Positions 6,124-6,298 of a DNA stretch of 64,000 nt are shown here, piece by piece. A program made the translations under genes and the position numbers. The notes under the pieces were generated by a model. That model had not been told where the DNA came from. It searched no databases and worked only from the letters and a program-made list of their open reading frames with translations. Each line of letters opens with the position of its first letter. Position 1 is the first letter of the stretch. The stretch is from assembly GCA_000165345.1 (NCBI GenBank), contig CM000435.1, positions 1,088,001 through 1,152,000 on the forward strand, given 5' to 3'.

Positions 6124-6249
6124 TGGATACTTTCTTTCCTTCTCGTAGTCAAGATTTTAAACAAATACTTCAATCCATTACGATATTTCTCCTTGTCCTT
6201 TTTTCTGTGCTCATGCTTTTCAGAGACAATTATTTGATTTAGGCACATG

Positions 6250-6267
6250 TTGGCGCCATGGCGCCAA
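6250..6267. promoter_or_regulatory. Perfect 18-nt palindrome TTGGCGCCATGGCGCCAA (two inverted E2F-like TGGCGCC half-sites) in a 175-bp bidirectional promoter
   Basis: Read directly from the sequence. It lies between the divergent ATGs at 6123 (kinase, -) and 6299 (+). TGGCGCC/GGCGGGAA-type motifs recur upstream of many genes in this window. Confidence 0.5.
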
Positions 6268-6298
6268 CCACGAGAAAATTGCAAATTACCTATAGATA

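Follow-up and report, generated by a model that had tools for sequence, protein, structure and literature searches.

A conserved palindromic pair of E2F-type sites in the head-to-head spacer between cgd7_4850 and cgd7_4860 of Cryptosporidium parvum

Introduction

The E2F motif (5'-TGGCGCCA-3') is the most over-represented upstream motif of Cryptosporidium parvum (Oberstaller et al., 2013; PMC3734150). Here we describe a 20-nucleotide (nt) palindrome composed of two abutting copies of this motif, which is located in the spacer between the divergently transcribed genes cgd7_4850 and cgd7_4860 in a 64-kilobase (kb) stretch of C. parvum chromosome 7 (the window; all coordinates refer to it). An earlier note on this DNA had described an E2F-like palindrome that serves both genes as a symmetric element. 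The palindrome is probably a doubled Cryptosporidium E2F/DP-type promoter motif in the core promoter of cgd7_4860 and as such an ordinary instance of the commonest cis-element of this genome.

The motif was first noticed in 2003 on chromosome 6 (Bankier et al., 2003, cited in PMC3734150). Genes with the motif upstream are found in 163 of 200 expression clusters (2,379 genes), without any particular expression pattern. The CG core of the motif is symmetric and the full site spans about 12 base pairs (bp); no pRb orthologue has been recorded in C. parvum (PMC3734150). A 2025 review gives the consensus as 5'-[A/T][C/G]GCGC[G/C][A/T]-3' and lists two E2F and two DP genes (PMC12246861). In sporozoites, E2F is the most prominent motif in the peaks obtained by the assay for transposase-accessible chromatin with sequencing (ATAC-seq), more than half of which carry the annotation of bi-directional promoter (Xiao et al., 2025; bioRxiv 10.1101/2025.01.17.633476). 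Li et al. (2021; PMC7840661) described the motif as palindromic, proposed bidirectional promoters in C. parvum and reported two copies within 100 bp in 22.6% of the upstream regions of long non-coding RNAs that have E2F as their only motif.

Materials and methods

The window spans cgd7_4830 to about cgd7_4990. The 1604-amino-acid (aa), NOT4-like and mechanosensitive-channel proteins encoded in it are identical to C. parvum Iowa II entries and the published primers for reverse-transcription PCR (RT-PCR) of cgd7_4830, 4840, 4850, 4860, 4880–4930 and 4990 all place within it; the DNA was therefore assigned to C. parvum chromosome 7. Its G+C content is ∼30%, and the non-coding share (outside long open reading frames; ORFs) is 21.8%, with a G+C content of 26%. 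Motif counts and spacer classes refer to this single window, and the comparative material consists of the window and 12 orthologous loci (∼224 kb altogether). E2F-type cores were defined as GGCG[CG][CG] and counted on both strands. The whole window was scanned against Rfam at the gathering threshold and a cut-off of E ≤ 0.01 was used for Pfam matches of the window proteins.

Results

Sequence and position of the palindrome

The earlier note had reported a perfect 18-nt palindrome. The sequence in question, TTGGCGCCATGGCGCCAA, is indeed present at positions 6250–6267, but outward extension gives a true perfect length of 20 nt (GTTGGCGCCATGGCGCCAAC, residues 6249–6268). The palindrome is built from two directly adjoining copies of the octamer TGGCGCCA, each self-complementary, with cores 8 bp apart. 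Both octamers are exact copies that fit the reviewed consensus and, as TGGCGCCA is the published C. parvum E2F motif (PMC3734150), the description as E2F-like was apt. The further description as two inverted half-sites was not, since each octamer is a complete palindromic site; for the same reason, the 16-mer formed by the two is equally a direct tandem repeat and an inverted repeat. The palindromic look is the automatic outcome of juxtaposing two self-complementary sites and is no selected design feature.

Within a window of ∼30% G+C, none of 100 dinucleotide-preserving shuffles contained a match to the palindrome at three or fewer mismatches, and both the octamer and its core are in excess, with four copies of TGGCGCCA against 0.06 expected and seven copies of GGCGCC against 0.12 expected; the occurrence of the palindrome is therefore not a matter of chance.

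The spacer is enclosed by divergent start codons at 6123 (− strand) and 6299 (+ strand), as had been stated, and measures 175 bp. The palindrome does not lie almost exactly between these two codons. The cgd7_4860 ATG follows 31 nt after its end and the kinase ATG is 125 nt from its start; its centre is ∼40 nt from the former codon and ∼135 nt from the latter, or ∼77% across the spacer. Both cores lie in non-coding DNA, their starts being 39 and 47 nt upstream of the cgd7_4860 ATG, and the spacer contains no E2F-type element other than the double site.

Conservation across Cryptosporidium

Orthologues of cgd7_4860 are found in eight other Cryptosporidium species, with protein identities from 90% down to 32%, and in all eight the kinase gene and the large gene are arranged head to head with spacers of 163–236 bp. 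Multiple cores are kept in five of these species: two GGCGCC cores 8 bp apart in C. meleagridis, chipmunk genotype I, C. ubiquitum and the species of SRR31860986, and three GGCGCC cores in C. canis. The three more distant species have one core each, namely a GGCGCC accompanied by a degenerate copy in C. felis and a single GGCGG in C. bovis and C. ryanae. The spacing of the double site is thus 8 bp in five species and 9 and 11 bp in C. canis, and the self-complementary nature of the sites leaves their orientation undefined. The central bases of the palindrome differ between species (CATG, CGTG or CAAG). Judged from these alignments, the conserved trait is the presence of cores and not perfect palindromy.

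The mean pairwise identity of the palindrome is 94% in the five closest species, compared with 54% for the kinase-proximal part of the spacer in the same species, and 75% over seven species. In the seven-species alignment, the invariant columns of octamer 2 run from G157 to A163. The cores keep the same distance from the cgd7_4860 ATG in the window and in C. meleagridis, chipmunk genotype I and C. ubiquitum.

A second conserved block (6206–6248) lies directly 5' of the palindrome on the + strand. It shows 75% identity, compared with 42% for the kinase-proximal spacer, and contains a TTTT..GAGACAAT stretch that is invariant across seven species. The block is non-coding, its frame being broken by indels, and is probably part of the same core promoter. 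Purifying selection acts jointly on the palindrome and this adjacent block of ∼45 nt, and the constrained core of the spacer (6206–6268, ∼65 bp) lies on the cgd7_4860 side. Two candidate explanations of the block were rejected. An upstream small ORF of nine codons is present in C. parvum, but indels of 1–2 nt break it in both C. meleagridis and C. ubiquitum. Nor is GAGACAAT a recurrent promoter motif: it occurs seven times in the window against 3.4 expected, and the other six copies fall inside coding ORFs.

The comparison also bears on two gene models. In the C. canis and C. felis loci (at about 2960–3040), the annotated starts of the cgd7_4860 orthologues lie downstream of the start used in the other species and in C. 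canis the conserved ATAATGTCAGAAA start is found upstream of the annotated one; from the sequence, both models look 5'-truncated.

The flanking genes

The kinase gene was assigned its identifier, cgd7_4850, from the RT-PCR primers. Both of its ORF segments match the Pfam Pkinase domain, and its top matches among solved structures in the Protein Data Bank are CDK2, CDK3, CDK5 and CDK1 (E about 1e-31), in agreement with the label CDK-like in the earlier note. The best intron model (5441–5670) gives a product of the same length, 286 aa, as the annotated orthologues of C. meleagridis and C. ubiquitum. The product of the plus-strand gene is 1604 aa long, again as noted earlier. It has no Pfam match at E ≤ 0.01 and a full-text literature search for cgd7_4860 returned no papers. 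One member of its 90% UniRef cluster, from C. hominis, is named 'Dopey N-terminal domain-containing protein'.

The two genes belong to different expression clusters (68 for cgd7_4850 and 75 for cgd7_4860). Their RT-PCR profiles show a correlation of r = −0.43 over seven time points, which is not significant, and the comparison is weak because the published forward primer of cgd7_4850 (Mauzy et al., 2012) sits at 5531–5552, inside the predicted intron. With the same reservation regarding the intronic kinase primer, expression peaks at 72 h for cgd7_4850 and at 2–24 h for cgd7_4860. The published expression values and cluster assignment of cgd7_4850 may report unspliced RNA or genomic DNA.

E2F-type cores elsewhere in the window

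The window contains 25 E2F-type cores, 21 of which are in the non-coding 21.8% of the sequence (binomial p = 6e-11). At least one core is present in all four divergent spacers, in three of the six tandem spacers and in one of the four convergent spacers. Three close pairs of cores (6–15 bp) were found, where random placement in non-coding DNA would give 0.29 (P = 0.002): the palindrome itself (8 bp), 30631/30645 (14 bp) and 27951/27965 (14 bp). All three recur in other species. The last pair lies upstream of tRNA-Met in a same-strand spacer, and thus neither the motif nor its pairing is peculiar to divergent protein-coding pairs. Coordinates are collected in Table 1.

Table 1. Genes, conserved blocks and E2F-type sites of the window (strand left empty for elements without a defined orientation)
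Feature	Position	Strand	Remarks
Head-to-head spacer cgd7_4850/cgd7_4860	6124..6298		175 bp; same layout in 8 other Cryptosporidium species
20-nt perfect palindrome GTTGGCGCCATGGCGCCAAC	6249..6268		Two abutting E2F-type sites
E2F-type octamer 1 TGGCGCCA	6251..6258 (core GGCGCC 6252–6257)		Exact published C. parvum E2F motif
E2F-type octamer 2 TGGCGCCA	6259..6266 (core GGCGCC 6260–6265)		Core invariant in 7 of 7 aligned species
Second conserved non-coding block ..TCATGCTTTTCAGAGACAATTATTTGATT..GCACATG	6206..6248		Directly 5' of the palindrome on the + strand
cgd7_4850, CDK-like protein kinase	5033..6123	−	Predicted exons 6123–5671 and 5440–5033; intron 5441–5670; 286 aa
cgd7_4860, uncharacterised 1604-aa protein	6299..11113	+	Identical to C. 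parvum Iowa II EAK90452.1 / CPHLJ_7g4860; gene nearest the double site
Single GGCGCC	897..902		93 nt upstream of mechanosensitive-channel gene cgd7_4830
Single GGCGCC (TTTTGGCGCCTAAA)	3993..3998		Tandem unidirectional spacer upstream of phosducin-like cgd7_4840
Single oriented canonical E2F site TTTGGCGGGAAG	23369..23380	+	∼87 nt upstream of the Alg14 ATG (23459)
CCCGCC core pair (tRNA sense), 14 bp apart	27951..27970	−	57–76 nt upstream of tRNA-Met (27820–27895, −)
GGCGCC core pair, 14 bp apart	30630..30651		∼200 nt upstream of the NOT4 ATG (30432, −)
Single oriented site TTTAGGCGGGAA	31341..31352	+	385 nt upstream of the PP2A-B''-like gene; kept in chipmunk genotype I and C. ubiquitum
Three 5S rRNA genes	34479–34598, 35150–35269, 36061–36180	+	Rfam RF00001, 102.5 bits each

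Two further spacers had been cited in support of a symmetric element between divergent genes. Beside Alg14, the true start codon of which is at 23459 (MYGS...), the sequence TTTGGCGGGAAGCCAAA at 23369–23385 had been taken for a similar inverted arrangement. It proved to be a single oriented TTTGGCGGGAA site: chipmunk genotype I, C. ubiquitum and C. canis all retain TTT(T/A)GGCGGGAA, whereas the GCCAAA arm (23380–23385) is not conserved across species. The site is 539 nt away from the membrane-protein ATG at 22833. In the other spacer, between NOT4 (RING and RRM domains) and an EF-hand protein of the PP2A-B'' type, the pair TGGCGCCA...TGGCGCCG was found at 30630–30651 as described. Chipmunk genotype I and C. 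canis have kept both of its cores, and C. ubiquitum and C. bovis one. The reading of this pair as one element shared by the two genes was not borne out, as the 1.3-kb spacer contains three separately conserved site groups (30631/30645, a middle site at 31022, and 31344); NOT4 and the PP2A-B''-like gene therefore each appear, from the sequence, to have their own E2F-type sites. The length of this spacer (30433–31728) is considerable for a compact genome and it may hold an unannotated transcript or 5' exon. The sole TGGCGCCA within a long ORF (28764–28771) is in the coding sequence of NOT4, where the sense strand reads GATGGCGCCATT and encodes residues D-G-A-I.

The tRNA-Met (CAT) was identified by both Rfam and ARAGORN. 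The core pair upstream of it is kept in C. ubiquitum and C. canis, is reduced to one clear copy in chipmunk genotype I and is missing in C. bovis. Nearer the tRNA gene, C. parvum, chipmunk genotype I and C. ubiquitum share a conserved TTTAAATAACT block. The three 5S rRNA genes sit in an unusually long spacer of 3.7 kb (33133–36879) between the PP2A-B''-like gene and a gene encoding 2151 aa. This spacer contains six E2F-type cores, five of them GGCGGG and all five on the + strand; two of the GGCGGG cores fall 141–161 nt past the end of a 5S gene. The asymmetric variant shows a strand bias in the window as a whole, where the + strand reads GGCGGG 12 times and CCCGCC twice, and 11 of the 12 GGCGGG copies are non-coding. 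At 15690, 23372, 31344 and 36639, where it is clear which gene is nearest, TTT-GGCGGG-AA is directed at that gene.

Discussion

Proposed function and points against it

We infer that the two cores are bound by E2F/DP proteins. Extrapolating from the literature, winged-helix heterodimers of E2F (cgd1_1560 and cgd6_1430) and DP (likewise two genes) would bind each GGCGCC core and, once bound, would maintain an open and active promoter, chiefly during the early and asexual stages. Because the spacer is only 175 bp long and has no other E2F-type core, the same sites might serve the divergent kinase gene cgd7_4850 as well.

Several points weigh against this assignment. The 2025 review stresses that functional validation of Cryptosporidium E2F/DP is lacking (PMC12246861). 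Two heterodimers, each with a footprint of ∼12 bp, would overlap on cores only 8 bp apart, so that simultaneous occupancy is uncertain and alternative occupancy of the two cores would be just as likely. The adjacent block (6206–6248) is conserved at least as well as the palindrome over seven species, and a factor other than E2F/DP could be the main determinant of this promoter.

Alternative explanations

The proposal that one symmetric element between divergent genes drives both of them coordinately, thereby linking a cell-cycle kinase to its neighbour, is possible rather than probable. The head-to-head spacer is syntenic in eight other species, it has the double site as its only E2F-type core, all four divergent spacers of the window contain at least one core, and bidirectional promoters have been proposed for C. 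parvum (PMC7840661; bioRxiv 10.1101/2025.01.17.633476). Against this stand the off-centre position of the element (31 nt from one ATG and 125 nt from the other) and the lack of conserved symmetry, the centre bases being variable and C. canis and C. felis having three cores and one, respectively. The other two cases cited for it turned out to be gene-proximal (a single oriented site in one, separate sites for each gene in the other), and cores and close pairs are also found in tandem spacers and upstream of a tRNA. The two genes fall into clusters 68 and 75 with r = −0.43, subject to the caveat of the intronic cgd7_4850 primer. The cell-cycle link in particular carries no weight because most genes of the genome carry the motif: with genes of 163 of the 200 clusters (2,379 genes) downstream of it, it implies nothing that is cell-cycle specific. 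Sharing of the sites with the kinase gene is thus favoured by the short spacer without another core and disfavoured by the offset of the element, and a bidirectional promoter is plausible. A reading that would dispense with any cell-cycle switch gives the motif a general part in defining promoters or open chromatin for RNA polymerases II and III (Pol II and Pol III) alike, comparable to that of general regulatory factor sites in yeast, with a preference for closely paired cores. It agrees with a near-ubiquitous motif devoid of expression specificity (PMC3734150) that dominates ATAC-seq peaks (bioRxiv 10.1101/2025.01.17.633476), with the conserved core pair that precedes tRNA-Met by 57–76 nt and the presence of cores between the three 5S genes, and with the excess of close pairs (three against 0.29 expected, P = 0.002), all of which are conserved in other species. 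We nevertheless consider it doubtful: the sample is one 64-kb window, the pair near the tRNA could equally serve the downstream pantothenate-kinase gene and the positions of the cores around the 5S genes are irregular.

Two other explanations do without a protein-binding motif. It is very improbable that the palindrome acts through an RNA hairpin within a 5' leader or through a DNA cruciform. For five species, folding predicts a GC stem of 7–11 bp, within stretches of 61–66 nt that have minimum free energies of −12.9 to −20.3 kcal/mol; the stem would sit ∼31 nt before the ATG. Any two self-complementary sites yield such a stem, however, and the six orthologous stretches fold no better than shuffled sequences (z = −1.2 to −1.9). 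In C. felis, C. bovis and C. ryanae the stem has disappeared while a single core persists, compensatory changes are absent, the cores being invariant, and the whole-window Rfam scan at the gathering threshold placed no family in the spacer, its only hits being the three 5S genes and one tRNA elsewhere. The hairpin was rejected on the z scores and the absence of the stem in C. felis. A functionless GC-rich palindrome that arose by chance has nothing beyond its short length in its favour and its probability is negligible. It is excluded by the shuffles, none of 100 of which reproduced the palindrome, together with the conservation of the palindrome across species in which the orthologous protein is 58–90% identical and the neighbouring spacer has diverged.

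Significance

The double E2F-type site near cgd7_4860 is a real observation and a conserved promoter element. Its motif, with the abundance, palindromy, frequent double occurrence and association with putative bidirectional promoters of that motif, is already in print (PMC3734150, PMC7840661, PMC12246861, bioRxiv 10.1101/2025.01.17.633476) and the palindrome is therefore of an already known kind, with little value as a discovery; its sharing by both genes, as earlier proposed in the literature for bidirectional promoters, is plausible. A broader and tentative idea, which we think unlikely on the sequences at hand, is that paired GGCGSS cores with a conserved spacing of 8–15 bp might constitute a distinct, selected promoter-defining module that serves Pol II promoters, head-to-head ones among them, and is also placed beside Pol III genes (tRNA-Met and 5S), with E2F/DP acting as general chromatin openers and not as cell-cycle switches. 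If the pairing beside Pol III genes holds genome-wide, it would be of moderate interest for promoter definition in a reduced genome. With its compact conserved spacer and delimited core of ∼65 bp (6206–6268), the locus is a convenient one for a first functional dissection of Cryptosporidium E2F-type sites.

Comparison with known systems

The sites of the yeast general regulatory factors Reb1, Abf1 and Rap1 mark nucleosome-depleted and often bidirectional promoters. They have in common with the element described here that a short GC-rich motif occurs at many promoters whatever their expression pattern. The protein families are different and the likeness is a functional analogy only.

The double E2F sites of the adenovirus E2 early, DHFR and E2F1 promoters are likewise two close sites near the start of a TATA-less gene, and the T-rich outer flanks of the present element (TTGGCGCC...GGCGCCAA) resemble the overlapping inverted site of the DHFR type. 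In contrast to the adenovirus and DHFR double sites, each site here is fully palindromic and has no defined orientation, and the centre spacing of 8 bp is tighter than that of the adenovirus sites. A literature search for the overlapping inverted E2F site of DHFR gave no hits. A further difference from double E2F sites under pocket-protein control is that C. parvum has no recorded pRb orthologue (PMC3734150).

Like the E2F-containing peaks annotated as bidirectional promoters (Xiao et al., 2025; Li et al., 2021), the element combines an E2F motif with a short head-to-head spacer in a compact genome, but it is strongly offset to one gene. The closest match is the C. parvum E2F/DP motif itself (motifs 3 and 4 of Oberstaller et al., 2013), with which the element shares the sequence TGGCGCCA, the core [C/G]GCGC[G/C] and the GGCGGG variant, as well as an upstream, non-coding and enriched occurrence in the same organism. 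The two abutting copies were not singled out in the papers, although double occurrence in an upstream region is reported to be common (PMC7840661); nothing essential differs, and the palindrome is an instance of the published motif class in its published context.

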